Source of the DNA: an uncultured Gammaproteobacteria bacterium
Lineage (GTDB): Bacteria; Pseudomonadota; Gammaproteobacteria; Steroidobacterales; Steroidobacteraceae
Direction of reading: 5' to 3'
DNA: 64,000 nucleotides
Assembly (NCBI GenBank): GCA_963771615.1
Contig: CAVYUD010000001.1
Coordinates: 11,490-75,489, forward strand
Below are positions 12,054 to 51,106 of this stretch, piece by piece. Each line of letters begins with the position of its first letter. The first letter of the stretch is position 1. The position numbers and the translations under genes are program-made. Below the pieces are notes generated by a model. The model saw nothing but the letters and a program-made list of their open reading frames with translations, was not told the DNA's origin and searched no databases.

Positions 12054-12196
12054 GGGGCCAAACTCCGCAGCTGTAAGGAAAATCGTGGTTCGCTGTAACA
12101 CAAACCTCAGACCATATGAACATTGTTCCGCCCTGGACTCAACGCGGTAACTCAGACTCTCAGATACCACCGAATTGAAACCTTAGGAGCTGTCGC

Positions 12197-17409: not shown

Positions 17410-17416
17410 CAGGGTC

Positions 17417-18670: not shown

Positions 18671-18673
18671 CGA

Positions 18674-22421: not shown

Positions 22422-22427
22422 GGTGCA

Positions 22428-24772: not shown

Positions 24773-24786
24773 AATGATCTCGAGCT

Positions 24787-34673: not shown

Positions 34674-34748
34674 GCACAACTCGGGAACTGTACTTATGCC
34701 ACTCGCACTCCAGCCTAAAGGAAGTGGTGGGCTACGACCAGCCGATGG

Positions 34749-34768
34749 GATTGGCTCCCCGGGACGGA
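34749..34768. repeat. 20-nt exact copy of the tRNA-Asn 3' end and flank (GATTGGCTCCCCGGGACGGA): outermost att remnant
   Basis: Identical to 51029-51048. Read directly. Confidence 0.7.
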
Positions 34769-35344
34769 GCCGAAATCATGCGAAAACCGCGGGAATTTCC
34801 CCGCACTTTTCGTGTCTGCGGATTTCCGATACCCGCAAAAACACCCCTGCCAAAAACATGGCTGCCGCCGGACGTTGTCGGATGACAGATCACCGGATCC
34901 GACAGAAAGCTACGAGATCGAACACACCGGATCGCCATCATTTATTCCAAATACACCGGCAGCGACTTCAATCCACGGAAAACCGGTGACGCGCGCCAAC
35001 GAATTTCCGCGCGTGGAACGGCCAATCGAATGTTGGGAAATCGGGCGAGCAACTTGTTAAAGGCGATGCCCCGCCGGCGATTCATCAAGCTCGGCAATGA
35101 CGCTGTGCGCGAAATGTACGATCGTTAGAAGCGTCTCCATGGCGGGTTCGGATGCGCGCCGCAGCAGGCTTGGAGGTTTATTTGCATACATAGCTAGATT
35201 TGGTCAGGCTGGCGGTTTAATTCCCAATCTCGCAGGGTAACGTCAATGAAATGGAAGGCGCCGGATCCACAAGCTAGGGATTGCCATCACGGCTTCGCGC
35301 ATGGAAAGTGATGAAACCGCCAACTGCCGCTGGCGCAGCTCGCT

Positions 35345-37074
35345 TTGTTGGCTCTTGGACTGGGCGTCGTCACCGGCATCGGCGCGGTGTTGTTCCGCGA
35401 TTTGATTGGCCTTATTCACAATCTATTCTTTACCGGCCACGCATTGCTTCACTACGATGCGAATGTTTTCACAGCTCCCGCGCCATGGGGCGCGTGGGTG
35501 ATCCTGGTGCCCGTGTTGGGCGCGATTGGCGTGACGTTTCTGGTAACCAATTTTGCCCCGGAGGCCAAAGGCCATGGCGTGCCCGAGGTCATGGATGCGA
35601 TCTATCACAAAGGCGGCGTCATCCGCCCGGTGGTGGCATTGGTCAAATCCTTGGCCTCAGCCCTGGCTATCGGCAGCGGCTCATCGGTTGGGCGCGAAGG
35701 ACCCATTATCCAGATCGGATCCGCGCTCGGTTCGACTTTAGGACAGATCGTTCGCATGCCTGCGGGCCAGCGAATTGCCCTGGTCGCCGCAGGCGCGGGC
35801 GCGGGGATCGCTGCCACGTTCAACACGCCCATTGGCGGCGTGATGTTTGCCATCGAGCTGATGATGCCGGAGGTGAGCGTCGAGACTTTCCTTCCGGTCG
35901 CCATTGCGACGGGAACCGCGACCTTCGTGGGCCGCTGGTTCTTTGGCGATACGCCGGCCTTCCATGTGCCGCCGCTTCAGGCGATGGCCGTCGATTCAAA
36001 CGCGCTGATCGTGCTGATCCTGTTCGCCGTGCTCGGTGCGCTGAGCGGAGTGGCCGCGGCGGGCTTCATCAAAGCGCTGCATCTCGCTGAGGATTTGTTC
36101 GACAGGATCAAGTCGCGCTATTTGCGCCACATGCTGGGCATGCTGATCGTGGGCGTGCTCATGTACGTGCTGTTGCGCATCTTCGGTCAGTACTACGTCG
36201 ATGGGGTCGGTTACGCCACCGTTCAGGCGGTGTTGGCGGGACAGATCTCGACCTTTTGGCTGCTCGCACTCCTCGGCCTCTGCAAAGCGTTGGCGACATC
36301 GATCAGTCTCGGATCGGGCTCATCGGGGGTATCTTTTCGCCTTCGTTGTATATGGGCGCTGCCCTGGGTGGCGCATTCGCGGCACTCTGGAATGTGGCCG
36401 GCCTGCCGATTCAGTTAAGCGTTCCCGCGTTCGCGATGGTCGGCATGGGTGCGATGGTGGGCGGCGGCACCGGCGCGGTGATGACGGCCGTCACGATGAT
36501 TTTCGAAATGACGCTCGACTACAGCATCGTGATGCCGATGATTGTGGCGGTGGCGATGAGCATCGGCGCGCGCCGCGTGCTTTCTCGCGAGACCATCTAC
36601 ACCCTGAAGCTGGTACGCCGCGGACGTGCGATTCCGAAGGCGCGCCATGCGAACATGTTTCTCGTCCGCTCTGCGCGCGAAGTGATGGACGCCGATATCC
36701 AGGTTCTGCCGGCGGAAGAGAGTTTCGATGAGTATTTGCGTCAGCCCGAGCATGCCGGCCGACTGCGCTACGTCGTTGTCACGGACAAAGGCCATCTGTT
36801 CGGCGTGATCCGCGTCAACACGGGACTGCGGCGAGGCTTGGAAGGTGCGAATACCGGCGTGAGTTTAGGCGATGTTGCCAACCGAAACTTCACCGTGGTG
36901 CGCGAAGATGAGACTGCTTTTGATGTCATCCGCCGCATGTGGCGGCGCAAGGCGATCATGGCGGTGGTTGTGCGTGGCCGCGGAGTCCCACGCGGCAGCG
37001 ATGTCGCCGGCGTGATCACCAAGGAACACGTGGCGGACTCTGTTGCGGACAGCGTGAAGGCCTATCCGCAATAA
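35345..37074 (+). CDS. ClC-family voltage-gated chloride channel with C-terminal CBS pair, one frameshift as sequenced
   Basis: GKEGP-type and GSGIPE-type motifs are present as GREGPIIQ and GHGVPEV. ORF 35345..36418 continues in ORF 36256..37074 (GIFSPSLYMGAALGG, then CBS domains). The shift is in the G-run 36325-36329. The start is uncertain (TTG 35345, or ATG 35311 in another frame). Confidence 0.8.
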
Positions 37075-37340
37075 GAAAATCAGGTTAGCGACTGCGTCAA
37101 ACCGCCAAAATTGCTTCAGCTCCGGCGGGCGTTGGCAGACCTAACAGCTCCCATAGGTGAGGCGGACTGCTCGACGTTACGCCAAAGAGGCGGACTACTT
37201 ATAAGAGTTTGCTGCCTTAGTCGCCCTGGTGGTCCCCTTGGGTATCAACAGGTGGTCGGCCGAAATTGGATTTATTCTAAAAAATTGGAAAAGCGATTTC
37301 GCAACCGCCCTCGAGCGCAATCACGGTCGCATTCTGAATA

Positions 37341-37354
37341 TGGTAGCGCTATCA
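37341..37354. promoter_or_regulatory. Second copy of TGGTAGCGCTATCA, putative LacI-family operator 35 bp upstream of the GH3 start
   Basis: Same 15-nt string as at 32924-32938. Located between a possible -10 element and the RBS AAGGGGAGG. Confidence 0.45.
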
Positions 37355-37388
37355 TTTATGTCTAAGTAAAGGGGAGGCGGGCTGCAGC

Positions 37389-40086
37389 ATGAGACGGTTC
37401 ACCGTTACCGCTTTCGTATACCTGTTGGCATCAGCCGCCGCTTGGTCTGAAGATGCCACCCATCTCGCCGCTCCAGTCGCGAGCGCGAAGCGGCAGCCAC
37501 CGGCACGAGGCGAGTCAAGCCTGCCGTATTTGGACACCCGCCTTACGGCAGAGGAGAGGGCCACCGATTTGGTAGGCCGTATGACTCTCGCCGAGAAGGC
37601 CGCGGAGATGCAGAACAATTCTGCGGCAGTACCGAGACTCAACGTCCCCGCATATCAGTGGTGGAGCGAGGCGCTGCATGGAGTCATTAACGACGGTGTC
37701 ACCGAGTACCCTGAGCCCATCGGATTGGCGGCCAGCTTTGATGCGCCCGCCATCCACGCGATGGCGGCTCAGATCGGCATCGAGGGGCGGATAAAACACG
37801 TGCAAAATGCCCGCGAGGGACACACCGGAATCATGGGCGGGCTGGATTTTTGGTCGCCCAATCTGAATATTTTCCGAGATCCGCGCTGGGGCCGCGGCCA
37901 GGAGACCTACGGGGAAGACCCCTTCCTGACCGGACGCATGGGCGTCGCCTATGTGACCGGACTGCAGGGCGACGATCCGAGATACTACCTCGCCATTGCC
38001 ACCCCAAAGCACTTTGCGGTCCATAGCGGGCCGGAGCCGACGCGGCATTTTGCCGACGTCGATGTCAGCCTACACGATGAGCTGGATACCTATGAACCCG
38101 CATTTCGTGCGGCTGTCGTGGAAGGCAAGGCTGCCTCAGTGATGTGTGCGTACAACGCCATCAATGGAGAGCCGGCATGCGCCAACCAGCACCTGCTGCA
38201 GGACCAGCTGCGCGGCCGGTGGGGCTTCACCGGGTACGTGGTCTCTGACTGCGATGCGGTTCGAGACATCGCCGCCAGTCATCGTTACCGCACCACGCAG
38301 GCGCAGGGCGTTGCCATATCCGTCATTCGAGGCATGGACAACGAATGCGTCACCTTCACCTCGAGATTCGGAGAGCCCGTCGAAAAAGCCTATGTGGACG
38401 CCGTGCAGCAGGGATATCTGCCGGAAGCCAAACTCGACGCGGCGCTGATCCGCCTGTTCACGGCTCGAATCAAGCTGGGCATGTTCGACCCGGCGGGAAT
38501 GGTTCCCTATGCGGCGATCGACGAGAAAGAACTGGACAGCACTGAGCATCGTGCCCACGCGCTCAAGCTTGCCAACGAGTCCATGGTATTGCTGAAGAAT
38601 GACGGCACCCTCCCAATCAAGAGCACCACGCAAAATATCGTGGTGGTCGGTCCGCTTGCCAGCCAGACCAAGGTGCTGCTCGGCAACTATTCGGGAAGGC
38701 CGACCCACAGCGTCTCCATCCTCGACGGTCTGAAGAAGGAATTTCCGACCGCCAAGATCACTTTCGTTCCGGGAATCCAGTTTCTGCGCAACGACGGCGA
38801 GCCGGTTGCGGACTCCATGCTCAGCACTCCGAGCGGACAGGCTGGGCTGACGGCGAAATACGGCGAGCCGAAAGGTGGTTTTGATGTCGCATCCGAGAAA
38901 GCGCTCGTCACCAGGACCGAAACCAACATCAATCTTTCCCAGTCCAGCCTGCCTTCGTTGCTCGCCGGAAAAAAGATCGTCACCGTGGAATGGACCGGTT
39001 CGATCGCGGTGCCGGAAACTGGTGACTATCTACTCGGCATGCGCGGCGTCGGCATTGCCGACCTAACGATCGATGGTAAGCGAGTCGCAAACCTGGCGGC
39101 TTACGATGACGCGGAGGCGGCCACGGGCCGAGTTCATTTCGTCCAGGGCCAGAAAGCCGCATTGACCGTGCATTACCGCAGCATGCCCAATGCACCGCGA
39201 CTCCAGCTCATCTGGGCAAGGGTCGATGACGATGTCTCTCCCGACGCCCTCACAGCCGCCCGCGGAGCCGACCTGGTGGTCGCTGTCGTCGGCATCACCA
39301 GCAGGCTTGAGGGTGAGGAAATGCCGGTCTCGATTCCGGGGTTTCTGGGCGGAGATCGAACCAGCATTGATCTGCCCCAACCGGAGGAAGCGCTCCTTGA
39401 AGCGATCGCCGGCACCGGCAAGCCCCTGGCCGTGGTCCTTCTGAATGGCAGTGCGCTCGCAGTCAACTGGATGAGCAGCCATGCCAATGCCATTCTTGAA
39501 GCATGGTATCCGGGCGAGGAGGGCGGGACGGCCGTCGCAAAAACGCTGAGCGGTGAAAACAATCCTGCCGGCCGGCTGCCGGTAACCTTCTACACCGGCG
39601 TTGAGCAGCTGCCTCACTTTGAAGATTACGGAATGGCCAACCGGACCTATCGTTATTTCGAGGGCAAGCCGCTTTATCCATTCGGATACGGGCTTGAGCT
39701 ATACGACCTTCAGCTACAGTGGCCTTCGCATTCCCATGCGCCCCGTGGCGGCGGGACAATCAGTCAACGCTGAAGCGACGGTCACCAACACCGGGAGGCT
39801 GGCGGGAGACGAGGTCGTTCAACTTTATCTTCAATTCCCGCCGGTCAAGGGGGCGCCGCTCGTCGCTCTTCGCGGCTTCGAGCGCGTCCATCTCGAGCCG
39901 GGTGCAAGCCGGCAGGTTCATTTTGAGTTGAAGAGCCGTGATTTGGGAATGGTCACGGAGGCTGGAAATCCGATCGTCGCCTCGGGGGACTACCGGGTCA
40001 GCATCGGCGGCGGTCAGCCGAATACCACTGCTGCCGTCGCGAGCGGGAAGTTCACCATCGATGGGCAGATCGCCCTGGCCGAATAG
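37389..40086 (+). CDS. Secreted glycoside hydrolase family 3 beta-glucosidase (BglX-like) with a PA14 insertion, one frameshift as sequenced
   Basis: KHFAVHSGPE and GFTGYVVSDCDAV (nucleophile Asp) motifs, a PA14-like segment at about 38800-39200, and a C-terminal Fn3-like domain in ORF 39601..40086 (GLSYTTFSYS...). The shift is at the G-run 39690-39692. Confidence 0.85.
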
Positions 40087-40456
40087 CGGATCGGGGCTAG
40101 TAGGACTATCGTAGAACCAGCAACGCGACGGAGAAAACAGAGGTAGTGGGAAAATTAGCCACCATGCGATGCCGCCGATCGCGATGGTCACCAATACGAA
40201 GCGGCGATCGTCGGTCGAACCAATGCTCTGTGAGTGCGCGCTCATCGCCTGAAATTGAACGGTCGTCATCTGCCGCAGAACTTCGTTGTCTCCCATGGTG
40301 GTAGGCGACCTTGGCGTCCCATTCGATTGCGATGAGATGCCGGCCGATTCGCAGCGGGGCGGGGCGGCGAAAGTAAGCGTTTTGTACGTATTTTCGACCA
40401 ACGAAAACAAATGACTCCGTAGAGCCTCAAGGAGATAGCGTAAGTCATTGTTTTGA

Positions 40457-40475
40457 TGGCTCCCCGGGACGGATT
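40457..40475. repeat. 19-nt copy of the tRNA-Asn 3' end (TGGCTCCCCGGGACGGATT): att remnant
   Basis: Identical to 51032-51050. With a 1-nt gap the match extends to GTTTTGA upstream (40450-40475 versus 51024-51050). Confidence 0.7.
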
Positions 40476-40555
40476 ACTCGGCGACCTCGCCCTTCGGGTC
40501 GCCCTAAAGGGCGATCGCCGCCGCTGTCGCGGCGTCGTCGAACCGTCTTGTTCAT

Positions 40556-40571
40556 GTCGGCGGTTCGAATC
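40556..40571. repeat. 16-nt tRNA-Asn T-arm fragment (GTCGGCGGTTCGAATC) in inverted orientation
   Basis: Exact reverse complement of 51047-51062. It overlaps the previous fragment's tRNA coordinates by 4 nt (GATT/AATC). Confidence 0.5.
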
Positions 40572-40620
40572 GACTTGGCTGACATCTCTCGGCAATAAGT
40601 CTGCGACCAGCCTTTCGGTG

Positions 40621-41909
40621 TGTAGTACCTGACACATAGCTTACTGCATATACCGGAGACATCGTTTACACCTCAAGGCTTTGGGAGTGCCCCAATGCCG
40701 TGGAAGGAGTGTAAGCGGATGGATGAACGGCTTCGTTTTGTGGCCCGCCTACTGGATGGGGAGAACATGTCTCGAGTGTGCCGAGAGTTTGGCATCTCTC
40801 GTCCTACGGGCTACAAAATATTCAACCGCTACAAGGATCTGGGTTACCAAGGATTGCTCGACCGCAGTCGACGTCCCTACCGACACGCCAACAAGCTGCC
40901 TTTCCAGCTCGAGAGTGCGATTGTTAGGCTGCGCACCGAACATCCGAGTTGGGGCGCTGCGAAGATCCGTGAGAAGCTGCTGCGCGCTTTCCCCATGGTG
41001 CCGGCGCCGGCCAAAAGCACCGTGCACGCGGTGCTGGATCGCAACGGCCTAGTCGAGCGGCGCAAACGCCGACGCCACAAAGCCCAAGGCACTTCTCTTA
41101 CCGATCCGAGTTCACCAAACCAACTCTGGTGTGCAGACTTTAAAGGCGAGTTCATGCTCGGCAATCGCCTGTACTGCTATCCGCTGACAATCAGCGACTA
41201 CAGCTCTCGATACCTGCTGGCCTGCGAGAGCCTCGAGTCGACCAAGTCTGCTTTTGCCTTTAACGTCTTTGAGCGAGTTTTTAAGGACTTCGGACTGCCC
41301 AGCGCCATCCGCAGCGACAACGGTGTTCCCTTCGCCTCACCCAACGCTCTGTTCGGGTTGAGCAAGCTTGCCGTATGTGTGGCTACGCTTAGGCATCCAG
41401 ATCGAGCGCATTAAGCCCGGACATCCTCAGCAAAACGGACGCCATGAACGCATGCACTTGACGCTGAAGAAGGAAGCCACCAAGCCGGCCTCCTTCAACT
41501 TCCTGCAGCAGCAGAGTCGCTTCGATAAGTTCATCGAGGTTTACAACTCGCAACGACCCCACCAAGCCCTCGGCATGCGCTACCCAGCGGAACTGTATAC
41601 ACCCTCTGTTCGCCCTTACCGCGACCCTGAGCCGCCGCAGTATCCCTTCCACGATCGCACCGTGTGTGTCACGCAATGTGGTCGAATCTGCATCGGAAAG
41701 CGAAAAATCAACTTGAGCCAAGTCTTCTCCGGTCAACTCCTGGGTATCCGCGAGGTAGATGAGAAAATCTGGCTTGTCAGCTTCTTGGATTTTGACTTAG
41801 GTTACTTCGATGAGACGGAGGGACGGGTCGAACCAGGCCCCAATCCCTTCGCCGCAAAAGTGTTAACGATGCCACCGGTATAGTCTGTAAAGGATGTGCC
41901 CGGTACAGA
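40621..41909. mobile_element. IS481-family insertion sequence (~1.29 kb)
   Basis: Imperfect terminal inverted repeats: TGTAGTACCTGACACATAGCTTAC at 40621-40644 versus the reverse complement of 41887-41909. They flank a DDE transposase gene. Confidence 0.7.
40695..41883 (+). pseudogene. IS481-family DDE transposase, one frameshift
   Basis: ORF 40695..41414 has an HTH and the first part of the catalytic core (LWCADFKGEF...IRSDNGVPF). ORF 41368..41883 continues (IERIKPGHPQQNGRHERMH...). The shift lies near 41370-41385. Confidence 0.8.
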
Positions 41910-41919
41910 CCGTGCTGAA

Positions 41920-41964
41920 TGGCTCCCCGGGACGGATTCGAACCGCCGACCAACGGATTAACAG
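41920..41964. repeat. 45-nt perfect direct repeat of the tRNA-Asn 3' end (distal att site of the capsid-encoding element)
   Basis: TGGCTCCCCGGGACGGATTCGAACCGCCGACCAACGGATTAACAG is identical to 51032-51076. Confidence 0.85.
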
Positions 41965-42112
41965 GGCCTAACTTCGCGCATTCTTCTTACGGTTGCGCAC
42001 GTAACTGCAAGATAATAAAGCACATCAGAAGCGGCAATAACGCTGCTTTTTCAGCTATTCCGAAGTGCGTTGCAACACGGTTGCAACTCAAACGAACCGC
42101 GAGTGACGGGAG

Positions 42113-42898
42113 TCAGACTTGGGTGGGAGGCTGCGGATCACTAAAGTCCCTGCCAACCTTGCGTCTCTTTCGCCATTTGTTAACGAGCCTGCGCAAACAT
42201 CGGCGCCACCAGGCAGCTTTCCTCGTACTGGCGGGCGGCGACACTCCACGGGCTGGCGCCGTCGGTGTGTACCTCATTATCAAACCGGTCGGAAATACCA
42301 GACTGAGGACCTCACTGAGTTGCGTCGATATTGAGAGCAGTGCCTCAACGGTCCTAGGAATGTCAGCCTGCAGGTTTCCGGTGAGTTGCTTCAATTGCTG
42401 TACAAGATCAAATCCGACCATTTCCTCGACAACATGACTCGGCACGGATTCGCTCGGGCGCAGAACCTCTCGCGCGCGCTCTTGGAATCTCAAGTGAGTT
42501 TCATTGCGCATTTTGTTTGCCGCCAGAATGGAAAGGAAGGCCCTCTCGACCAATGACAATCTATTCAAGATGTCTGCATCGTGCGATTTGAGCAAGAATC
42601 CCAAACGGTCCATTGGGAGCGTCGATCGTTCATTCCACACAATCGTCATCGGAAGGTATTCGATATAGACAGGGTCTCGTTTCAATTTGCTACGCACCTC
42701 CAATGCTCTATCGACAAACGCCTGCTGATCATAATTGCGAATGACCGAATACATCTGTGCGAGGACCATGATCGCTTCGTTTCCGGCCGCAAGGTTCTCA
42801 CGATGCTTCTCGCTGCCTCGCCGTACAGCCTCCAATGCGAAGGCGGCGACTGCAAAAAAAGCCGCTCCAAACTCTGCATATGGGGTGGACTCGCTCAT
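42113..42898 (-). CDS. Cargo protein C, hypothetical (261 aa, predicted all-helical, basic tail)
   Basis: ORF with about 50% GC. The start lies 4 nt after the stop of the 70-aa ORF. No recognisable domain. Confidence 0.55.
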   Translation of the reverse strand: MSESTPYAEFGAAFFAVAAFALEAVRRGSEKHRENLAAGNEAIMVLAQMYSVIRNYDQQAFVDRALEVRSKLKRDPVYIEYLPMTIVWNERSTLPMDRLGFLLKSHDADILNRLSLVERAFLSILAANKMRNETHLRFQERAREVLRPSESVPSHVVEEMVGFDLVQQLKQLTGNLQADIPRTVEALLSISTQLSEVLSLVFPTGLIMRYTPTAPARGVSPPASTRKAAWWRRCLRRLVNKWRKRRKVGRDFSDPQPPTQV

Positions 42899-42902
42899 TT
42901 TC

Positions 42903-43115
42903 TCACTTCCCTACCCGCGCGGCTTGAGCCGGTAAAGGCCGGTTTCTTTCCAGACTTCGATTACATCGCGTTTCGCGAGTAGTTCTGCGGCTTTCTTCGT
43001 CGCTTCGAGGCTTCCGATCTAGCCATTTGTCCGGGCGATCCGACGCCCATTCGAGCATTGCGAGCATTTGCTCCTGCACCAGGCGTTCTTGTCGCGTAAG
43101 TTTTTTCGCTGTCAA
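42903..43115 (-). CDS. Cargo protein B, small hypothetical (70 aa, charged)
   Basis: ATG 43115 overlaps the stop of the upstream gene (ATGA). Translational coupling on both sides supports that it is a real gene. Confidence 0.45.
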   Translation of the reverse strand: MTAKKLTRQERLVQEQMLAMLEWASDRPDKWLDRKPRSDEESRRTTRETRCNRSLERNRPLPAQAARVGK

Positions 43116-43969
43116 GCGCTGCCTGCGGGTCGACGAAATTCTTCGTCGGCTTCATTTCCATCCGTGTGCGCCGCTAGGCTGGGACCCATTACCCCGAGTG
43201 GTCCACCCGTGTAAAAGCGGTACCGAGTAAACCTGTCGTTCCCGAATGCGTCACGATAGCGGATTTCGCCAAACACAAAAATTGCTTTTTTCCCGCTCCG
43301 AAGATCTCCTAAAACTTCAGTGCTCAACACAACCCCCGATACCCAGAAAATAGCTCTGTTAGAGGAAGGACCCATGCTCGCTTTTGAGATTTTCGGATCA
43401 TCAAATCGAGCCTTTGGCACAAGTTCCGTTATTAAGGGCCAATCAACGAGTTCTGTACTTATTGTCGCTTGGGCGTCGTAAGCTGGCGTCTGGCCAAAGT
43501 TTCTAAATTCGATAACTACACCTGTCCCGCCACCAGCAAATATTGTTCGGTTAGGCTCTATGAAGTTGCTATTTGCGTCCGCCGCGACAATCCTTGCGTT
43601 CTCAACAAAAACATCCGCCCGCAATTGCCTCACTGCTGTTCTTTCCGCATCTTCAACCAGGTTTCCGGTTGATCGCCAAAGCCGGTAGGTAAAGATTGCT
43701 AAGGCGGCTGTTATAACTGCGAGGGCCCCAGTCCCAACAGCAGTCCAAAATTCGATCCTGGATTTTCGCGTTTCTCTGTCATTTTCCAGACGAGTCTCCG
43801 TCAGAGGCTTGCTGATGATGATTGGCTGATCTGCAGTTCCGCGCCTGTCAGTCTCCGCCGTCGGATTAGGGTAGGCATCCGGGATTTCCGGAATGATGGT
43901 GGCGTGCGCAATTGCGAATGCGAGTAATCCCGTAAATGTCAGTCCGTGCCGCATCTTGTGGAGGCTCAT
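43112..43969 (-). CDS. Cargo protein A, hypothetical membrane protein (285 aa, two TM segments plus a ~170-aa beta-rich C-terminal domain)
   Basis: TM1 LTFTGLLAFAIAHATII and TM2 FWTAVGTGALAVITAALAIFTY. C-terminal domain ...VVIEFRNFGQTPAYD...IFVFGEIRYRDAFGNDRFTRYRFY. Confidence 0.55.
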   Translation of the reverse strand: MSLHKMRHGLTFTGLLAFAIAHATIIPEIPDAYPNPTAETDRRGTADQPIIISKPLTETRLENDRETRKSRIEFWTAVGTGALAVITAALAIFTYRLWRSTGNLVEDAERTAVRQLRADVFVENARIVAADANSNFIEPNRTIFAGGGTGVVIEFRNFGQTPAYDAQATISTELVDWPLITELVPKARFDDPKISKASMGPSSNRAIFWVSGVVLSTEVLGDLRSGKKAIFVFGEIRYRDAFGNDRFTRYRFYTGGPLGVMGPSLAAHTDGNEADEEFRRPAGSA

Positions 43970-44068
43970 GCGCCAATTGTAGCGGGCCGGTGTTGAAAAA
44001 GACCGTCCAATGTTGCGACCAGCCCTGCGGCCATTTCACAGATACCCGATCTGCGCTACATTCGCGGA

Positions 44069-44374
44069 GTGCTGATCGGCGCGAAAGTCCGAATCGATCC
44101 CAACACACCGTGCGGCGATTGCCCGCACGCGCCCAGCTGCGCCGCTTCTGGCATGGTCTGCGTGGCCTTTAATTGCTTCATAAGCAGCGGCTACTCAAGC
44201 CAGCGCTGGCGATCGCTGCCGCGAGAGCCAAGCGCAGCGATGACAGCGCACTCGCAGCAGCTGCATAGAAAGCAAACGGAGATGGAGCTTAAATGGCTGG
44301 CGAAGTTCGAGAAGCGCCAGGCGCGAAGGGGAAAGGCCACCAACTCGAGTCGCCCCGAATCGGTGGCCTGCTGA
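44069..44374 (+). CDS. Possible Cys-rich small protein (101 aa), convergent with the capsid gene
   Basis: ORF only (GTG start). No homology recognised. It could be non-coding. Confidence 0.3.
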   Translation: MLIGAKVRIDPNTPCGDCPHAPSCAASGMVCVAFNCFISSGYSSQRWRSLPREPSAAMTAHSQQLHRKQTEMELKWLAKFEKRQARRGKATNSSRPESVAC

Positions 44375-45522
44375 TCAAGCCAGCGCGACGACCTGCACAG
44401 CGTGCGCGTCGCCTACGGATAATTGCCCTCGAAGCTCGGCCAGGTAGGTGAATAGGTTCTCGGTGAACTGCGAGCCCGTATAGCCGATTAGGAATTGAAT
44501 TTCCTGCCGATCCAGTATCTCGACCAGCTGCGTATCCAGCACAATCGCATGGCCCGCCGCCAGACCAGGCGTAGAGACAATCTTTGCGTTGTTCCAGAGG
44601 GCGCTCGGCGCGGTTGCATCTACGTACTCACCAGTGGTCGCCCGCTCGGAAATGATATTGAAATAGTCGCTGGAATTCACTATCACCAAATCCGCCGCGT
44701 ATCCGTAAGGCGGAAGGCCGTTGTAGACTGCATCGCCGATTTTGTCCCGATTCTTTGTCGCGGCCGACGTGAATGCGGTGCCCGCGTTCACTAAGCCAGT
44801 GATATGCCCATCGCTGGCGCTGCCTGAGCCGCTGATGATCAGATTCTCGTACTTGCGCAGCACGAAGAACGAGAGCCAGGACTGCAGGAAAGCTGGCAAT
44901 GACGAAACATCATCCAGCAGCTGGCGGCTTGCATTCAGGAAGGTCGCAACCGTCGCCATCGGCAAGCTTGCGTGTGAACGGACATAGTGCTTTCGCCCTT
45001 CGCGCCGCCCTGGAATTCCTGGACGGCCGATCCATCGCTGCTGCTGGTAACTTCGGGGACAATCGCCGTGCCTGCTCCTGTCGGCCGATGCGGCAACGCC
45101 TGAAGCACTTGCAGTTTTCTGCCGGGCGAAGAAATTGGGACTGGCGAAATAAATTCTGTCGGCGTCGGGAAGCCGTCTTCCGGCGAAGATCCGCTGGTGC
45201 CGGTCGAGACAAGGACGGATTTGATCAGCATCGACAGCGAGCCCTTCTGGGTCAGCTGAATCTGGCGCGTCTCGCCCTTGCGCAGCTGCTCGATCTTCGG
45301 ATCAGCGGCAAGCAATTCGCCGAAGTTTAGGCGGCCGCCGGCGCCACGATTGCCGCCGCTGCGGACGCTCTTCGCGACCTTCTGCTCAAGATCCAGAATG
45401 CGCGCATCGGTGGCCTTGGTGTAATCGCCGAGTTCGGCCAACTGCTTATCGACCTTCAGGCCGGAAGCCTTCGCTGCATCGCCGATTTCGCCGATAGATT
45501 TCGTGATCGTTGCAAGATCCAT
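44375..45522 (-). pseudogene. HK97-fold phage major capsid protein, one frameshift as sequenced
   Basis: ORF 44935..45522 has an N-terminal coiled delta-like region (...DARILDLEQKVA...). ORF 44375..44965 carries ...TFLNASRQLLDD...IISGSG...GLV... and a C-terminal A-domain. The shift lies near 44960-44970. Confidence 0.85.
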
Positions 45523-45525
45523 AAA

Positions 45526-46188
45526 TTAATTCCTTGAATTGAAGTTTTGAGTAGCGCGCCTCGCTGCGGCAAGCACCGCCGTGATTTCTTGCGCGTCGAA
45601 TTTGGGTTCGTGATCGTCTTCCGCCAAAAGCGGGCCGCACGCCTTTGCAATTTTCTCGGCCAGGCGGCGCGGCATCGGCGGAAGCTCGCCTTCGCGTAGC
45701 AAGCGCTCAAGATCTGCGCCTGCGAGATTCTTCACCGCCAAGATTCGCGATTCTCGATTCGATGGCGCTGCGACGGCGCTGATTTCGACCAGATCGACGC
45801 GCTTGAAGCGCTTGCCGCCGCCAGAAATGGCTTCCACATGCCCATCGTGCGGCATGAATCCGACGCTTAGCGAAAGCTGATTGGCGCGCGCAAGGGCCAA
45901 CGCGCGGTCCGCAGATGGCGTGCCGGGTATGATTCGACCTTCGACGTGCAGGCCTTCGTCGGTTTCTTCAGCGCTTGTGATGCCGCCCAGCTGGTCGCGC
46001 TCCGAGTGATTGTTCAAAAGCGGGATGCGCTGCTTACCGGAATGCAGCGCGGCGATTGAATCGGCGAAAGCACCAGGCAAAATCTCGTCGCCATGACGAT
46101 CTCGCGCCCAGCTCGATGCGAACCCTGCGAATGTGCCTGAATCGGCTGCGGGCGCGAATTTTAAAATCAATGGCTGCGAAAAGATCAC
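45526..46188 (-). CDS. HK97-family prohead protease (S78/U35)
   Basis: ...FAGFASSWARDRHGDEILPGAF... (catalytic His region) and ...LSLSVGF... (Ser region). It sits immediately upstream of the capsid gene. Confidence 0.85.
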   Translation of the reverse strand: MIFSQPLILKFAPAADSGTFAGFASSWARDRHGDEILPGAFADSIAALHSGKQRIPLLNNHSERDQLGGITSAEETDEGLHVEGRIIPGTPSADRALALARANQLSLSVGFMPHDGHVEAISGGGKRFKRVDLVEISAVAAPSNRESRILAVKNLAGADLERLLREGELPPMPRRLAEKIAKACGPLLAEDDHEPKFDAQEITAVLAAARRATQNFNSRN

Positions 46189-46333
46189 GCGCGCACCTCA
46201 AAGGCCAGTAGAAAATCTGGATTGCCTTTCGAGAAGCGCGGTCGCACATTCTGAAAAATGCAAAGGCGCGCGGTCGCACAGCCTCTACGCGGCGGAATGT
46301 AGCGCATGGAAGCATGGCCGCACAAGACCGGCT

Positions 46334-46666
46334 TCACGATTTCGGGCCAACAATCGAGACATTCCTTCGGCCGGTATGCACACGCGATGCCTTCGCCAGG
46401 TCAGAAATTCCCTGGCCCATGCGCTTGAACCTTTGCAGCGCTATGTGCAGCGCGATCTTCGCGTCTGCGGCGGACATCGGGCCTTCGATCTGCCAGGAAA
46501 TGATCAGTCCGTTCTGAATCGTCGCAACGCCGACGCATGCTTGATCCTTTCCCACATGCGGGCAATCGACGATCGCGTGGTCATCGGGTAGCGCGAATCC
46601 TGCCAGCTGATGTGCTTCGGCTTCGCATGCCGCGCAAAGCATAGGCGGCCGGAGGTGCGTGGCCAT
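46334..46666 (-). CDS. Hypothetical protein (110 aa)
   Basis: ORF co-oriented in the element. Its start abuts the stop of the upstream ORF. No domain recognised. Confidence 0.4.
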   Translation of the reverse strand: MATHLRPPMLCAACEAEAHQLAGFALPDDHAIVDCPHVGKDQACVGVATIQNGLIISWQIEGPMSAADAKIALHIALQRFKRMGQGISDLAKASRVHTGRRNVSIVGPKS

Positions 46667-46908
46667 CAGTTCGTCGCCCTTGCGATGCGCGCCTGATACT
46701 GCGCCAGGCGCACCGCCAACATGCCGTTGATCTGCCGCATGGCGATTTTCAGCTGCTGCTCGTCCATCAGCCCGCTTGATGCCAGCAAAAGCTGCCCACG
46801 CTCGCCTACATTCAGGAATGTTTCGTACGTCATGCTATTCAGCAAAAGGATCAGCGCCAGCTGCGAAGTCTCTCGCGCTACGGGTTCGTCGAAAGTCGGT
46901 TCGGTCAT
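46666..46908 (-). CDS. Hypothetical protein (~80 aa, from the internal Met MTEPTF...)
   Basis: The internal Met is preceded by AGAGGAA. The longer 5' extension looks non-coding. Confidence 0.4.
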   Translation of the reverse strand: MTEPTFDEPVARETSQLALILLLNSMTYETFLNVGERGQLLLASSGLMDEQQLKIAMRQINGMLAVRLAQYQARIARATN

Positions 46909-47113
46909 CGGAATTCCTCTATTTGCCGGGAAAAAGTGAAACTGCTCGGGGGGGATGCTGCGAATTAAGCGACGGGGTACCATGCAATTTCGCGCAAAGG
47001 GGCTCGCGTTTGGACGATGGCCGCGCAAAAATCTTTCTAGGACGCGATCGCTTGCGCGCACCGCTTTTTACTGTGGACCGCCCTACGGGAGGCGGACCCG
47101 CCCCTATGGGCGA

Positions 47114-47386
47114 TCATGGCGATTTGCCTTCGAGCGCCGCATAGCTCGCGATTTGAAAGTGGAGTAGGCCGCTCCATCCGCAGCCGCACTCAGCGATGCG
47201 GCTGTTAGGCAAATCGACATACCACCATCGAAAGCCGCGCACGCCATTGGGCGTTCGCTGCGTGTGCGCGATATGGTTGTGAACAATGGCCCGCCCTGCG
47301 ATCCGTTCGGGCATTCTTCGTCCTGCGATCCGTTCGGGCATTCTTCGTTCTTCTGGCATTCCTCGCTGCGCTTTTGTTGTCTTCAT
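47114..47386 (-). CDS. Hypothetical protein (90 aa) containing a duplicated RRMPERIAG segment
   Basis: ORF. Contains the perfect 27-bp tandem duplication at 47295-47348. Confidence 0.4.
   Translation of the reverse strand: MKTTKAQRGMPEERRMPERIAGRRMPERIAGRAIVHNHIAHTQRTPNGVRGFRWWYVDLPNSRIAECGCGWSGLLHFQIASYAALEGKSP
47295..47348. repeat. Perfect tandem duplication, 2 x 27 bp (CCTGCGATCCGTTCGGGCATTCTTCGT)
   Basis: Read directly. It is in-frame within ORF 47114..47386. Confidence 0.9.
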
Positions 47387-47428
47387 TTCGAATCTCTCCT
47401 GCAGTTACGGGTTCAATCAATCGGTTCG

Positions 47429-47623
47429 TCAAAGCATTTCGCGCGCGATGATCTGCACCACATCGTGATCATTCATGCGCAAGCAGCTGGCGATATCGCG
47501 CGGCCGAAGTCCATCGCGATGCATGCGCAGTACTTCGCGGCGAATATCATCGGGATTGGTTGGCCGATGCATCTGCGCGCGCGCTTCGTAGTCGCGCGCT
47601 GATAGAATTCGATCAGCCATCAA
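47429..47623 (-). CDS. Small HTH-like protein (64 aa)
   Basis: ...IRREVLRMHRDGLRPRDIASCLRMNDHDVVQII resembles a sigma-70 region 4 / LuxR-type HTH. Confidence 0.45.
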   Translation of the reverse strand: MMADRILSARDYEARAQMHRPTNPDDIRREVLRMHRDGLRPRDIASCLRMNDHDVVQIIAREML

Positions 47624-47750
47624 GCGTTGCTCCTAGCGATTTGGTGGTTAGGCCGCGCGGCCGAAGAGTCGGTATGCTGCGGCCAACGGGAACCGCCGCT
47701 TAGACTCAAGGATCGGACTGCGCTGGCCGATTTCAAATTGCGGCGAATTT

Positions 47751-48494
47751 TCAATGCAGCGCTCCCGATTCGGACAGCGAAAGCTTGAGGCGCTCGACGT
47801 CCTCGATCGGCAGATTGTATTCACGGGCGAACCAAGTCAGCGCCTGGCTTGGAACGGCCGCCATCACTTCAAGCGCGAGCTTCTCGCGCTGATCCTTCGG
47901 CAGATCTGAAAATTCAGCTTTGCCTTTCATGACCCTCCGCAGCGTTGGCGGCCTGGCTGCTGGCGCTTCGGGCTTCGAGCTTTTTTTTTCCAAATCTTCC
48001 GGCGCGCGCGGTGCGGCAGCTTGCTGCTGCACATTACATGTACGATTATTTGGAGGGTTACCTGAAGAGTTAAGAGAAGAGTTAGTCGGCAATCCTTGCC
48101 GGGCGTCGTGTCGTAGATTGCCGGGCGTCGGGTCGTCATTTGCCGGGCGTTCCCACTTTGGGTCATCTACCCAGGGTTTTGACGTACGCAATCCGGCCAG
48201 CCGATCGGGAATCGTGGCCATGTACTCGTGAACGAACCAAGCTTTGCCCTTCTGCGCCTTCTGATAGATCCTGAGCCACTCTGCGTCTGCCGCTAGATTG
48301 AGGTGAGTGCGAACCGATCGCACGCTCAGTCCGGCTCGCTTGGCGATAAGCTCCTGGGCTGGGAAAGCGTTTTCGCCGACCTGATTCATATGCAGGGAGA
48401 GCACCAAAAGCACCAGCCGAGTACTCGGATCTGACGGACCATTTTCGCTTGCGATCAATTCGCGCCATTGCCAGCGCTCACACTCAAGCGCCAT
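47751..48494 (-). CDS. Winged-helix replication-initiator-like protein
   Basis: N-terminal ...RLVLLVLSLHMNQVGENAFPAQELIAKRAGLSVRSVRTHLN... wHTH, as in phage/plasmid replication organiser proteins. Low-complexity linker. Confidence 0.55.
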   Translation of the reverse strand: MALECERWQWRELIASENGPSDPSTRLVLLVLSLHMNQVGENAFPAQELIAKRAGLSVRSVRTHLNLAADAEWLRIYQKAQKGKAWFVHEYMATIPDRLAGLRTSKPWVDDPKWERPANDDPTPGNLRHDARQGLPTNSSLNSSGNPPNNRTCNVQQQAAAPRAPEDLEKKSSKPEAPAARPPTLRRVMKGKAEFSDLPKDQREKLALEVMAAVPSQALTWFAREYNLPIEDVERLKLSLSESGALH

Positions 48495-48636
48495 TGCGCG
48501 CAGCCACTACTTCAATCATCGCTTGTCCGTCCCGTATCCGTTCCAAGCCTAAAAGAAACGCGCCGAATATCCGGCGACCGATCAGCTTCAAAAAGACGCA
48601 GCGCTTGATTACGGGTCAAGCGCTGCGCGATTCCGA

Positions 48637-48885
48637 TCAGGGCTGTGCTGCCGCGGCTTCTTTGCGCTGGCGATTCGGCGCTGTGCCGGTGCCAAGAAAT
48701 TCCAACGCCTCGGCTGCAGATAGGTCGTATGCAAAGCCCGCCACCGCAAAATTCGATGCGAGATCAACGATCATAAATTTCCCGTGATTGCTGGCTGACC
48801 CGAGATGCCGCCGGCTTTTTCGAAGTCGGTAGCCATGCGCTTTGGCTGCTCGCTGCGCGCGCGCGATCTGCTTACCGGCGCTCAT
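48637..48885 (-). CDS. Small hypothetical protein (82 aa) ending ...APNRQRKEAAAAQP
   Basis: ORF. 4-nt overlap with the upstream ORF. Its C-terminal tail is encoded by the 35-nt repeat. Confidence 0.45.
   Translation of the reverse strand: MSAGKQIARAQRAAKAHGYRLRKSRRHLGSASNHGKFMIVDLASNFAVAGFAYDLSAAEALEFLGTGTAPNRQRKEAAAAQP
48647..48681. repeat. 35-nt direct repeat, copy 1 (GCTGCCGCGGCTTCTTTGCGCTGGCGATTCGGCGC)
   Basis: 34 of 35 nt identical to 48892-48926, with 245-bp spacing. Confidence 0.85.
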
Positions 48886-49169
48886 GCCGATGCTGCCGCC
48901 GCTTCTTTGCGCTGGCGATTCGGCGCGATAGAAAAGCTGGCGACGTTGGCGGTGTGGAGTTCAAGCCAGCGCTGGTATCGGCTGCCCAGCACAATCAATT
49001 CGCGGCCGACGCGGGCAAGCGCGCCCGCTTGGATCAGTGAATCCCGATTGGCGCGAACGACGTACGCGGCGCGCGAGCAGGAATTGGGGTAAATGTGGGC
49101 GGGCCAGTCGGCGATCGTCCAGGAATCTTGCTGCGCGAATTTGCGCGGCTTCGGGGTCTTGGCAGGCAT
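48882..49169 (-). CDS. Possible excisionase/DNA-binding protein (95 aa) ending ...APNRQRKEAAAASA
   Basis: ...LIQAGALARVGRELIVLGSRYQRWLE resembles Xis/AlpA-type wHTH C-termini. The position near the integrase fits. Confidence 0.45.
   Translation of the reverse strand: MPAKTPKPRKFAQQDSWTIADWPAHIYPNSCSRAAYVVRANRDSLIQAGALARVGRELIVLGSRYQRWLELHTANVASFSIAPNRQRKEAAAASA
48892..48926. repeat. 35-nt direct repeat, copy 2
   Basis: See copy 1. Confidence 0.85.
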
Positions 49170-49268
49170 ATCAGCGGCTCCATCAAGTTTGGTACCGCTT
49201 ACCTATATAAAGTACTTTTGCCCGAGTGGGGCGCGCGAACGGCGTTCACGCGCCAAATAATCGAAAAA

Positions 49269-49724
49269 CTACTTGTTTTTGGCTGTCAAATCGCCCTCAG
49301 CTTCGGCGGTGATTTTGTAGATCTGGGAGTTGGTGAGCGCCAGCGATGATACCCAGTCAAGGCGGAATAGCTCGCGCATTGCATCGGATCGCTCGAAGCC
49401 CTTTTTGCGAATCTTCAGATATTCCTTTTTCAATTTCGCATGATCATTTTTCTTTCGACGCGCCTTACCTGAAGCTTTGCCAGCAGCACTCGCGCGCTTC
49501 GCGGTGGCGCTGCCTTTGCCTGATGCGATGGCGGCGTCAAAGGCCGCTTGATATTCGTCCATCGCGGCTTTCATGCTTTGCAAATCGCCGATCCTGATCG
49601 ACTCGGACACCCGCGCAGCATGGATTTCGTGCGCACGCTTCGCTTCGTCTGAAGCAGCATCGATCACCGATACAAGATCAGCGATTGCCTTCGCAATCGG
49701 GGCTGGCTTCGCCTTGCCGCTCAT
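49269..49724 (-). CDS. Hypothetical protein (151 aa, Ala/Lys-rich)
   Basis: ORF with a 4-nt overlap with the integrase stop. No domain recognised. Confidence 0.45.
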   Translation of the reverse strand: MSGKAKPAPIAKAIADLVSVIDAASDEAKRAHEIHAARVSESIRIGDLQSMKAAMDEYQAAFDAAIASGKGSATAKRASAAGKASGKARRKKNDHAKLKKEYLKIRKKGFERSDAMRELFRLDWVSSLALTNSQIYKITAEAEGDLTAKNK

Positions 49725-50830
49725 TTGCCGCCCAACGCTTTATCAAGCGCGGCATGGCCAGTCACCGCCTTCGTGTCGACCAGGTGCGCATACCGCGCCG
49801 TTACAGCTGGCGATCGATGGCCGAGGACGCTGCCGATTTCCAGCAGGCTTGCGCCATTGGCGGCCAGGAGCGAAGCGCAGCTGTGGCGAAGATCGTGCCA
49901 GCGGAATCCCTGCAGGCCCGCAGCTGCGCGGATGCGGCGCCAGAATCGTTCGACCCACCATTGCGTCGCGGGCTCGCCGCGCTCATTGATGAACACGGCC
50001 GATGTAGAAACGACATTCGCGCGCTTCAGATCCCGAAGGGCAGCGGCAGCGGAGGAGGGCAGGTGCGCGCCGCGCGCGTCGCCATTCTTCGAAATGAGGA
50101 TCCGAAGCGATTGCGCCTCGAAATCGACATCAGCCCACTTCAGGCGCAGCAATTCCCCCTTTCGCAAGCCGGTGGCGATCGAGACCAGCACCGCCGCATA
50201 CATCGTCGGGCCCTGATCCTTCGCGGCGGCCAGGACGCGCGGAAGCTCGAGTTCGGTCAGATGCCGGGTGCGCGGCCGCCGTTCTGTCAGCAGCAGGCGC
50301 GGCGGCCAGACCTGATTCTCTGCCAAGTATCCGGAGGCGCGGCCCCAATTCCAGGCCGATCGAAGCGCCGATAGGTACCGATTGATCGTCGCGGGCGCGA
50401 TGCCGGTCTGCGCAAGCTTGTCTCGCGCATCGCGAAGGGTGACCACGCCGACTTCGCGGATTCGCTTCTCGCCGATCTTATTGACCCACCAAGCCAGCCG
50501 GGCGCACGAATCCTTGTAGGAAAGCAGCCGCTGCGCTTCAGGGTCCGCCAGGTAGGCTGCGGCCAGCTGCGAGACCGTCAGGCTCGTAAGATCGGGCCGC
50601 GCATCGCCTGCCTTGCGCCGCTCAGCGATCAGCTTCGTTTTTTCGGCATCGGCCCAGGCGGCCGCATCATCTTTGCTGCGGAAGGTCTGCGATCGCGCGT
50701 GGAAGGGGCGCACGCGGACCATGGCCACCCAGGCTATCGATCCGTCCTGATTGACGCGGCGCTTGACGTTGCCCTTCCAGCTTCGCTTTGAAGCTGATCG
50801 GGATCGGGCCGTATGATTGGCGGTATCCAT
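49721..50830 (-). CDS. Tyrosine recombinase / phage integrase
   Basis: SAM-like N-domain. Catalytic residues sit in ...ATGLRKGELLRLKW..., ...WHDLRHSCASLL... and ...LGHRSPAVTARYAHL. Adjacent to tRNA-Asn. Confidence 0.9.
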   Translation of the reverse strand: MDTANHTARSRSASKRSWKGNVKRRVNQDGSIAWVAMVRVRPFHARSQTFRSKDDAAAWADAEKTKLIAERRKAGDARPDLTSLTVSQLAAAYLADPEAQRLLSYKDSCARLAWWVNKIGEKRIREVGVVTLRDARDKLAQTGIAPATINRYLSALRSAWNWGRASGYLAENQVWPPRLLLTERRPRTRHLTELELPRVLAAAKDQGPTMYAAVLVSIATGLRKGELLRLKWADVDFEAQSLRILISKNGDARGAHLPSSAAAALRDLKRANVVSTSAVFINERGEPATQWWVERFWRRIRAAAGLQGFRWHDLRHSCASLLAANGASLLEIGSVLGHRSPAVTARYAHLVDTKAVTGHAALDKALGGK

Positions 50831-51031
50831 TGCAGCACCTCGATTGCTGTAGCGGCTAGGCCCTGGTCGATCCTTGCCGGGATCGATCGGGGCTGATTCT
50901 CAAGGCGCGCACTAGGCGCGTAGACGCGAATATGCGCCGCTCTGGGAGGCAGTTGCAACATGGCTTGCAACACGGCAATGCTGGCGAACCGCGGAAAGCG
51001 GCTTAAATACCTGTATTCACTGCGTTTTGAT

Positions 51032-51106
51032 TGGCTCCCCGGGACGGATTCGAACCGCCGACCAACGGATTAACAGTCCGTCGCTCTACCACTGAGCTAC
51101 CGGGGA
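51032..51106 (-). tRNA. tRNA-Asn (GTT), CCA encoded
   Basis: Manual fold: acceptor TCCCCGG/CCGGGGA, anticodon stem ACGGA/TCCGT, loop CTGTTAA, T-arm GGCGG-TTCGAAT-CCGTC. Confidence 0.9.

Follow-up and report, generated by a model that had tools for sequence, protein, structure and literature searches.

Downstream of a tRNA-Asn gene in a 64-kb stretch of Steroidobacteraceae DNA (contig CAVYUD010000001.1; the whole stretch is called the window here), 16 kb of sequence are punctuated by displaced copies of the 3′ end of that gene. The initial annotation took these copies as the borders of three islands that had integrated one after the other. We find that the 16 kb are better described as a mosaic of three processes than as three successive islands, a reading to which we assign a probability of roughly 70%: a capsid-encoding element integrated into the tRNA gene, an insertion sequence (IS) of the IS481 family came to lie beside a tRNA end as a consequence of its own targeting, and several short tRNA pieces would be relics of older recombination in the T-loop region. 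The repeat array as such is an ordinary, untidy tRNA integration hotspot, and tandem tRNA islands are already a known kind of arrangement; the non-trivial result is the targeting rule of the IS.

The intact tRNA-Asn(GTT) gene is located on the minus strand at 51032–51106, as supported by ARAGORN, by the Rfam tRNA model (74.5 bits) and by the sequence, and it was the sole match in an Rfam scan of 34–52 kb. The 17-mer TGGCTCCCCGGGACGGA is the tRNA-Asn 3′ end, CCA included, in reverse complement. It occurs at exactly four sites in the window (34752, 40457, 41920 and 51032), all on the plus strand, against a chance expectation of 0.01 (100 shuffles). The initial annotation had listed four copies in one orientation and had considered them beyond chance in 64 kb; the exact 17-mer scan and a blastn-short comparison, with the tRNA and its flanks as query against the window, bear out both statements together with all coordinates and lengths. 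Copy B (41920–41964, plus strand) is identical to 51032–51076 in 45 of 45 nt, corresponding to tRNA positions 32–76 (E 2e-20). Copy C (40457–40475, plus strand) matches 51032–51050 in 19 of 19 nt and covers tRNA positions 58–76, from inside the T loop to the CCA. Copy D (plus strand; feature 34749–34774) matches 51029–51048 in 20 of 20 nt at 34749–34768; its core at 34752–34768 comprises 17 nt of the tRNA, positions 60–76, to which 3 nt of matching flank are added, and extension into the T loop gives 21 identities in 23 nt (..ACGGAgcCGAA). When the copies were compared flank to flank, nothing rose above the shuffled controls, and the 26–27-nt version of copy C with one gap that had been suggested is not above chance either. 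Among 176 fetched loci the 17-mer was confined to tRNA-Asn genes or their fragments, which speaks against a dispersed repeat family.

A fifth piece of the tRNA-Asn gene had escaped the initial annotation. This piece F, GTCGGCGGTTCGAATC, is a 16-nt part of the T arm at 40556–40571, 80 nt from copy C, and is inverted with respect to the other copies, with the tRNA sense on the plus strand. It corresponds to 51047–51062 (tRNA positions 46–61), and its tRNA coordinates overlap those of copy C by GATT/AATC.

The segment next to the tRNA gene, here called E_B (41965–51031, 9.07 kb), is with high confidence a genuine integrase-bearing element, in agreement with what had been proposed for the capsid-encoding segment. 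It is bounded by the perfect 45-nt direct repeat, of which the tRNA-proximal attachment (att) copy is the 3′ part of the tRNA gene itself (51032–51076, anticodon loop to CCA) and the distal copy is copy B, a displaced tRNA fragment. All its genes, as assigned with Pfam and PHROGs, lie on the minus strand, and that of a tyrosine integrase (49721–50830, minus strand; Pfam Phage_integrase, 4e-31) starts 200 nt from tRNA-Asn. With an intact tRNA gene, a same-strand fragment of it (45 of 45 nt) and an integrase in between, E_B has the features by which Islander defines an island. The tetranucleotide distance of E_B is 0.0182 against a null of 0.0091 ± 0.0017, and none of the native windows of equal size lies as far out. 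Such profiling sets apart the capsid element, the only clearly atypical composition in the region, but not the interval between copies D and C, whose distance is equaled or exceeded by 15% of native windows. These features show that the 9.1-kb element integrated by a tyrosine-recombinase crossover in the anticodon-loop region of tRNA-Asn, regenerating the tRNA and displacing the perfect 45-nt fragment.

That the tRNA-Asn 3′ end is a hotspot of integration and recombination, as initially annotated, is evident from this integrase and its 45-nt repeat, and also from related genomes. Synteny with three relatives (L001–L003) extends from window position ~62 kb down to the tRNA and ends exactly at its 3′ end. 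In L001, a different tyrosine integrase (31% identity) follows directly after tRNA-Asn at 11675–13184, so the site is a hotspot within the family. L001 is the closest GTDB relative, with 86% amino acid identity in the aminotransferase, and the T stem of its tRNA-Asn differs from that of the window by a compensatory pair. In all three relatives synteny is present on the aminotransferase side only, and no tRNA-end repeat occurs within the 9–10 kb fetched.

On its other side, the T-arm/acceptor part of copy B is abutted by an IS of ~1.29 kb (40621–41908, plus strand), recognized by Pfam and NCBIfam matches, inverted repeats and homologs. Comparison with homologs places its ends at ~40619–40621 and 41908–41911. 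The terminal inverted repeats span ~40621–40671 and 41860–41908, each with two sub-repeats, and contain an imperfect 47-nt inverted repeat (40625–40671 and 41860–41906) whose ends are conserved in the homologs. The transposase gene (40695–41883, plus strand) reads as a 395-aa open reading frame (ORF) once a single base is deleted within ~41365–41380, and its product matches the Pfam models HTH_32, HTH_28, rve, rve_3 and LZ_Tnp_IS481. After this 1-nt frame repair it scores 225.9 bits with the IS481 family model NF033577 of NCBIfam, just above the cutoff of 224, and together with the family-type inverted repeats this assigns the element to the IS481 family. At its C-terminus the transposase extends for roughly 95 aa past the part covered by the IS481 model. 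Classical IS481 targets NCTAGN. The nearest copy found (L095) is 88% identical at the nucleotide level over window positions 40619–41950. A spacer of 8–11 nt (41909–41919) separates the right end (..CCCGGTACAGACC) from the TGG of copy B. On the left, 145 nt of non-IS DNA (40476–40620), which include piece F, lie between copy C and the IS; this stretch and the other intergenic pieces show no similarity to 181 loci, and the 145 nt have no match elsewhere in the window.

What places an IS next to a displaced tRNA end? On the Sinorhizobium meliloti plasmid pSymB, a homolog with 68% nucleotide identity is oriented likewise and stops 10 nt short of the 3′ end of tRNA-Arg(CCG). Other plasmid copies, from Rhizobium, Methylocystis, Peteryoungia and Ensifer, lie 9–10 nt from tRNA-Arg(CCG) or tRNA-Ser(CGA) or beside tRNA-like fragments, and two different IS variants share the position after tRNA-Ser(CGA). 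A T-loop box of the GATTCGAACC type is present 23–25 nt from the right end in all ten full-length copies (the window and nine plasmids). An unbiased metagenome scan, for which a transposase alignment was the sole seed, added 80 loci with 66–91% amino acid identity (IS loci compared: L081–L089 and L095–L174). In 22 of the 80, ARAGORN places a whole tRNA gene right after the IS, on the opposite strand; these genes represent 11 anticodon types, namely Met, Arg (TCT, CCG, ACG, TCG), Glu, Pro (GGG, TGG), Ser (CGA), Phe and Asn. Over the IS loci as a whole, tRNA-Arg(CCG) is the most frequent neighbor.

Many of the neighbors are 3′ fragments ending at the anticodon loop, the type displaced by islands. 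We used a strict test that looks for NGG, 8 nt and a 5-7-5 T arm, starting 41–60 nt past the stop codon. It was passed by 56 of 76 evaluable loci (the nine plasmid loci plus metagenome loci) compared with 26 of 5124 control windows taken from the same loci (0.5%), and 12 of the 20 that failed still look like tRNA on inspection, giving ~68 of 76 in total. Across 57 aligned right junctions, the distance from the IS terminus (..CCGGAATGGACC) to the TGG is 8–10 nt, mostly 9. tRNA-Asn itself recurs as a neighbor: in L168 the IS adjoins an intact tRNA-Asn, with 93% identity to that of the window over 123 nt, and in L097 a 45-nt tRNA-Asn fragment ending TTAACAG, like copy B. A shared motif, distance and orientation across independent copies, far above background, is the mark of a target-specific IS. 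These comparisons show, with high confidence, a rule of position and orientation by which this IS lineage inserts 8–10 bp past the 3′ ends of tRNA-type T-arm/acceptor sequences, in one orientation. We infer that the transposase recognizes its target by reading T-arm/acceptor DNA.

In the window, the IS adjoins copy B because its lineage itself targets tRNA 3′ ends, and this removes the middle one of the three annotated islands: the supposed IS481 island delimited by att copies contains an IS that spans 40621–41908 only, at a position that its own targeting explains. The IS would thus have picked the DNA of a tRNA-type T arm and acceptor 3′ strand and inserted ~9 bp past the CCA, 23–25 bp from the GGTTCGAANCC box, with its right end, as always, toward the tRNA, which would leave the tRNA gene intact. 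This may have happened before E_B integrated, next to the intact tRNA as in L168, or later, next to the displaced fragment. At the time of insertion, ~155 nt would have lain between the tRNA end (or copy B) and copy C.

Could the IS itself have produced copy C, either through a long target-site duplication or by carrying flanking DNA along? Within the IS1202 family of DDE insertion sequences, some members duplicate more than 20 bp of target, and a 20-nt direct repeat (ATGGCTCCCCGGGACGGATT) does bracket the 1443 nt that contain the IS. However, the repeat is 145 nt off the left IS end rather than adjacent to it, and a left-side repeat of the tRNA end of at least 11 nt is present in none of ~56 comparable copies. 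Since such a repeat is missing from every locus, copy C is not a product of the IS; that the IS duplicated the tRNA end is effectively refuted, and we regard this origin as highly improbable.

Several neighbors of the IS depart from ordinary tRNA genes. In L129 a group I intron (Rfam, 62 bits) lies within the adjoining tRNA gene, and the flank in L161 is of the same type; L141 and L144 have weak tmRNA-like matches beside the IS. In L086, a Rhizobium sp. Pop5 plasmid, the neighbor of the IS is a tRNA-like module flanked by RtcB and a gene with the annotation RNA-binding protein, and this module may be a tRNA-like domain of the Y-RNA type. The arrangement on pSymB, with the IS 10 nt downstream of tRNA-Arg(CCG), is found in L081 (S. 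meliloti 1021 pSymB 1313734–1318030) and in 29 further Sinorhizobium plasmid records; in the plasmid table used, this stretch is free of annotated features. Essentiality has been reported for the pSymB tRNA-Arg(CCG) gene (PMC11837538).

Our full-text literature search, in which ISfinder was not covered so that novelty is uncertain, returned no description of a tRNA-targeting IS481 group. We therefore suggest, tentatively and at a little under even odds, that these copies represent a widespread and apparently undescribed IS481 clade of soils, sediments and rhizobial plasmids that homes 8–10 bp past tRNA-type ends, island borders included. Its targets would comprise tRNA genes of many isotypes, intron-containing tRNA genes, tmRNA-like ends and displaced island fragments, a range that we put forward with the same reserve. 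If this is true, tRNA fragments made by islands serve as landing pads, and IS copies systematically mark the outer borders of tRNA-linked islands, which bears on the prediction of island boundaries.

Fixed target distances and orientations are known from other mobile elements. TnsD of Tn7 targets glmS. IS of the IS1202 group insert 5 bp from dif/pdif (PMC10132070), other IS target REP sequences (PMC1525189), and in eukaryotes Ty3, TRE5 and Dada target tRNA genes (PMC3706591). The IS described here resembles all of these in its fixed distance and orientation and in settling beside, not inside, an essential conserved sequence, a "safe harbor". Unlike them, it is a single-ORF IS481-family DDE element that does not encode an accessory target-selector protein, and its target differs as well, being the T-arm/acceptor DNA of many tRNAs, tRNA fragments and tmRNA-like ends. 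A single-protein DDE IS that locates tRNA 3′ ends with a precision of ~9 bp and in a fixed orientation would be a compact equivalent, in bacteria, of Tn7/TnsD or of the eukaryotic tRNA-targeting elements. Should it indeed be undescribed, it would provide a workable model for the question of how a transposase reads, as DNA, a conserved gene of a structured RNA, could possibly be developed into a safe-harbor insertion tool, and would explain the transposase genes found at island borders and beside tRNA-Arg(CCG) of pSymB.

The remaining tRNA pieces, copies C and D and piece F, map to tRNA positions 58–76, 60–76 and 46–61, and we read them as probable relics of older recombination in the T-loop region, carried out by integrases other than that of E_B. 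Sublocations of crossovers within tRNA genes are said to have been described by Williams in 2002. Crossover classes in the T loop/T stem and in the anticodon loop are established (PMC4383910). Re-inverting 40476–40567 (~92 nt) would join copy C and piece F into an uninterrupted 31-nt block of the tRNA 3′ end (51032–51062), which would equal a T-stem-region block, a common att class (PMC4383910). Copy D, judged by its sequence, looks like a slightly decayed block of the T-loop type. The cargo of the older events at copies C and D would no longer be recognizable, and the ClC chloride channel and GH3 beta-glucosidase genes that now occupy the interval between them, native-looking for the family, may have arrived there by later rearrangement. 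Our confidence in the origin of copies C and D as relics is moderate to low.

A related possibility is that copies C and D are scars of inversions or translocations between tRNA-Asn genes or att copies elsewhere, driven by an integrase or by homologous recombination, through which native genes were moved in. The native look of ClC, the break in synteny with relatives exactly at the tRNA, the inversion of piece F and a ClC/GH3 gene order that differs in every relative would all fit. Repeats of 17–19 nt, however, are short for homologous recombination, and the four main copies share one orientation; we consider this explanation unlikely.

Serial accretion, as initially annotated, would have three islands arrive in turn at tRNA-Asn, with the older two losing their integrases and with ClC and GH3 as foreign cargo. 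The four same-orientation copies far beyond chance agree with it, as do copy lengths that match the known T-loop and anticodon-loop att classes, the presence of another integrase at tRNA-Asn in L001 and the mobility of the GH3 unit, which sits in unrelated contexts in relatives. Tandem islands do occur: the 3919 islands of Islander include 125 double and 4 triple tandems (PMC4383910), with the rule that each member has its own fragment and its own integrase (PMC4383910; Hudson, Lau & Williams, 2015). Like Islander islands, the locus has a regenerated tRNA and a same-orientation displaced 3′ fragment at its ends, its stretches of identity reach the 3′ end from either the anticodon loop (45 nt) or the T loop/T stem (~17–31 nt), and, as in Islander arrays, several fragments can accumulate at one tRNA. 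Unlike in those arrays, one interval consists mostly of a transposed IS and another of family-conserved genes of native composition. Only one of the three intervals contains an integrase; there is none in 34769–40456 or in 40476–41919. Copies C and D, too, formally count as displaced fragments in the sense of Islander, but by its tandem rule the locus is one island plus orphan fragments, and of the three-segment array that had been proposed, one segment qualifies.

Neither the middle nor the outermost of the supposed islands has features of its own that would restore this picture. The IS is accounted for by its targeting, which leaves just ~155 nt of non-IS DNA for the middle one. For the outermost, 34769–40456, loss of the integrase had been assumed; no integrase remnant is present in 34600–41000 (tblastn, E > 1), and the composition is within the native range. 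An ORF at 39760–40410 on the minus strand was considered as an integrase remnant and rejected; it shows no similarity, overlaps the frameshifted C-terminus of GH3 and is probably spurious. On their own, displaced tRNA fragments are no proof of an island between them, and acquisition of ClC and GH3 does not follow from them.

The two genes themselves point the same way. The ClC chloride channel gene, with a CBS domain (35301–37074, plus strand; Pfam), is split into two ORFs by a frameshift near 36256–36418. Its product, of 591 aa in homologs, has more than 100 homolog clusters at 90–97% amino acid identity, several of them labeled Steroidobacteraceae, and the closest homologs all belong to this family where they are named. 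In two loci with close ClC relatives (L175 and L176), homology (89–90% at the nucleotide level) is confined to the coding sequence (CDS), 35301–37074; the neighbors differ, and neither a tRNA piece nor GH3 is found around ClC. L175 does carry a homolog of the OEP gene of the window (1257–2132) 9 kb upstream of ClC, a loose linkage that hints at conservation and adds to the case against foreign cargo. A 65-nt stretch between copy D and ClC (34828–34892) is 80% identical to L175 21181–21244, which lies upstream of a ParD-like antitoxin gene.

The GH3 beta-glucosidase unit, with GH3 N and C domains and PA14 (37326–40089, plus strand; Pfam; CDS start 37389, end ~40086), is interrupted by a frameshift, since the ORF breaks at 39773 and homology to relatives of 896–898 aa continues to 40089. 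Homologs measure 880–898 aa and have an Fn3-like domain. In two loci (L093, 9943–12694; L094, 9939–12700), nucleotide identity of 91–92% covers exactly 37326–40089/90, the flanks are unrelated among these loci and the window, and ClC is not nearby. The next named homologs (75–79% amino acid identity) are acidobacterial. The 63-nt leader contains a conserved palindrome, ATGGTAGCGCTATCAT, that looks like an operator, and GH3 with its leader appears to behave as a sharply delimited unit of one gene that moves between contexts. None of the four closest contexts examined has ClC next to GH3, and neither gene is beside tRNA-Asn in any of them. With native composition, homologs within the family and mobility for GH3 alone, the sequences compared lend no positive support to horizontal acquisition of the two genes as an island pair, and we consider serial accretion as a whole quite unlikely.

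Several observations weigh against the mosaic reading that we prefer. About 10% of the IS copies have no adjoining tRNA-like sequence, and a possible target-site duplication of 3 bp is seen in L097, L103 and L124, with none visible in the window or in others of the copies. The missing integrase counts here as well, as does the finding that no phage-like gene was found beside copies C and D with Pfam and PHROGs. The inversion that would join copy C and piece F is based on 4 nt of microhomology, GATT/AATC. Finally, no empty-site genome was found, and the older events are neither dated nor proven. The initial annotation had envisaged such empty sites as genomes in which the GloVer gene is directly followed by tRNA-Asn; none of L001–L003 and L091 has this order. 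The gene in question (33030–34673; TIGR03803 match) encodes a GloVer-repeat protein, and copy D begins 76 nt past its stop codon. Its closest relative, L091 (89% nucleotide identity), diverges 21 nt past the stop codon, at a point 55 nt short of copy D, and is free of tRNA pieces.

The locus may also be compared with the CIME (cis-mobilizable element) model of accretion and mobilization, in which att-flanked remnants that lack an integrase lie beside integrative and conjugative elements, as with ICESt1/ICESt3 of Streptococcus thermophilus. As in that model, DNA without an integrase is enclosed by att-like repeats and adjoins a functional integrative element in tandem. Unlike in that model, the resident integrase uses a 45-nt site of which copies C and D do not include the anticodon-loop part, and the resident element can probably not mobilize DNA bounded by them.

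From its distal end, E_B consists of two unassigned low-GC ORFs (42113–42898 and 43112–43969, minus strand), an HK97-type major capsid gene (44375–44965, minus strand; Pfam and PHROGs), a prohead protease gene (45526–46188, minus strand; Pfam and PHROGs), small ORFs, a gene for a replication-initiator-like HTH_36 protein (47751–48494, minus strand; Pfam and PHROGs) and the integrase gene. The N-terminal part of the capsid protein is probably encoded in the overlapping ORF 44935–45522. Satellites of the cf-PICI (capsid-forming phage-inducible chromosomal island) type are characterized by an integrase and a replication module, a full capsid and packaging module (portal, small terminase, adaptors) and helper dependence. 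E_B is like them in being small (9 kb) and integrated at a tRNA and in having an integrase, a replication initiator, a prohead protease and an HK97-type capsid; it differs in that portal, terminase and head-tail adaptor were not detected with Pfam and PHROGs. The small ORFs of E_B and those around copies C and D gave no Pfam or PHROGs match, and an IMG/VR scan with the integrase found best matches of just 26–30% identity and no close relatives. E_B could be either a satellite that encodes a capsid or a prophage in decay.

The best relatives of the window are Steroidobacteraceae metagenome-assembled genomes. From upstream to downstream, the genes and pieces follow in the order exopolysaccharide cluster, LysR, RidA, PhzF, GloVer, copy D, ClC, GH3, copy C, the 145 nt with piece F, the IS, copy B, E_B, tRNA-Asn and aminotransferase. 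The polysaccharide export and biosynthesis cluster (17400–27000, minus strand) encodes Wzz/GNVR, a Wza-type Poly_export protein and a sugar transferase and contains no mobile-element genes. Exact-protein look-ups with the aminotransferase, GH3 and GloVer returned no match, in a window where at least four genes are frameshifted. Relative to intact homologs, ClC, GH3, the transposase (40695–41883) and the aminotransferase (51200–52404) have one frameshift each, and the capsid gene (44375–45522) is probably frameshifted too, a pattern that suggests homopolymer or indel errors of a long-read assembly and not decay into pseudogenes.

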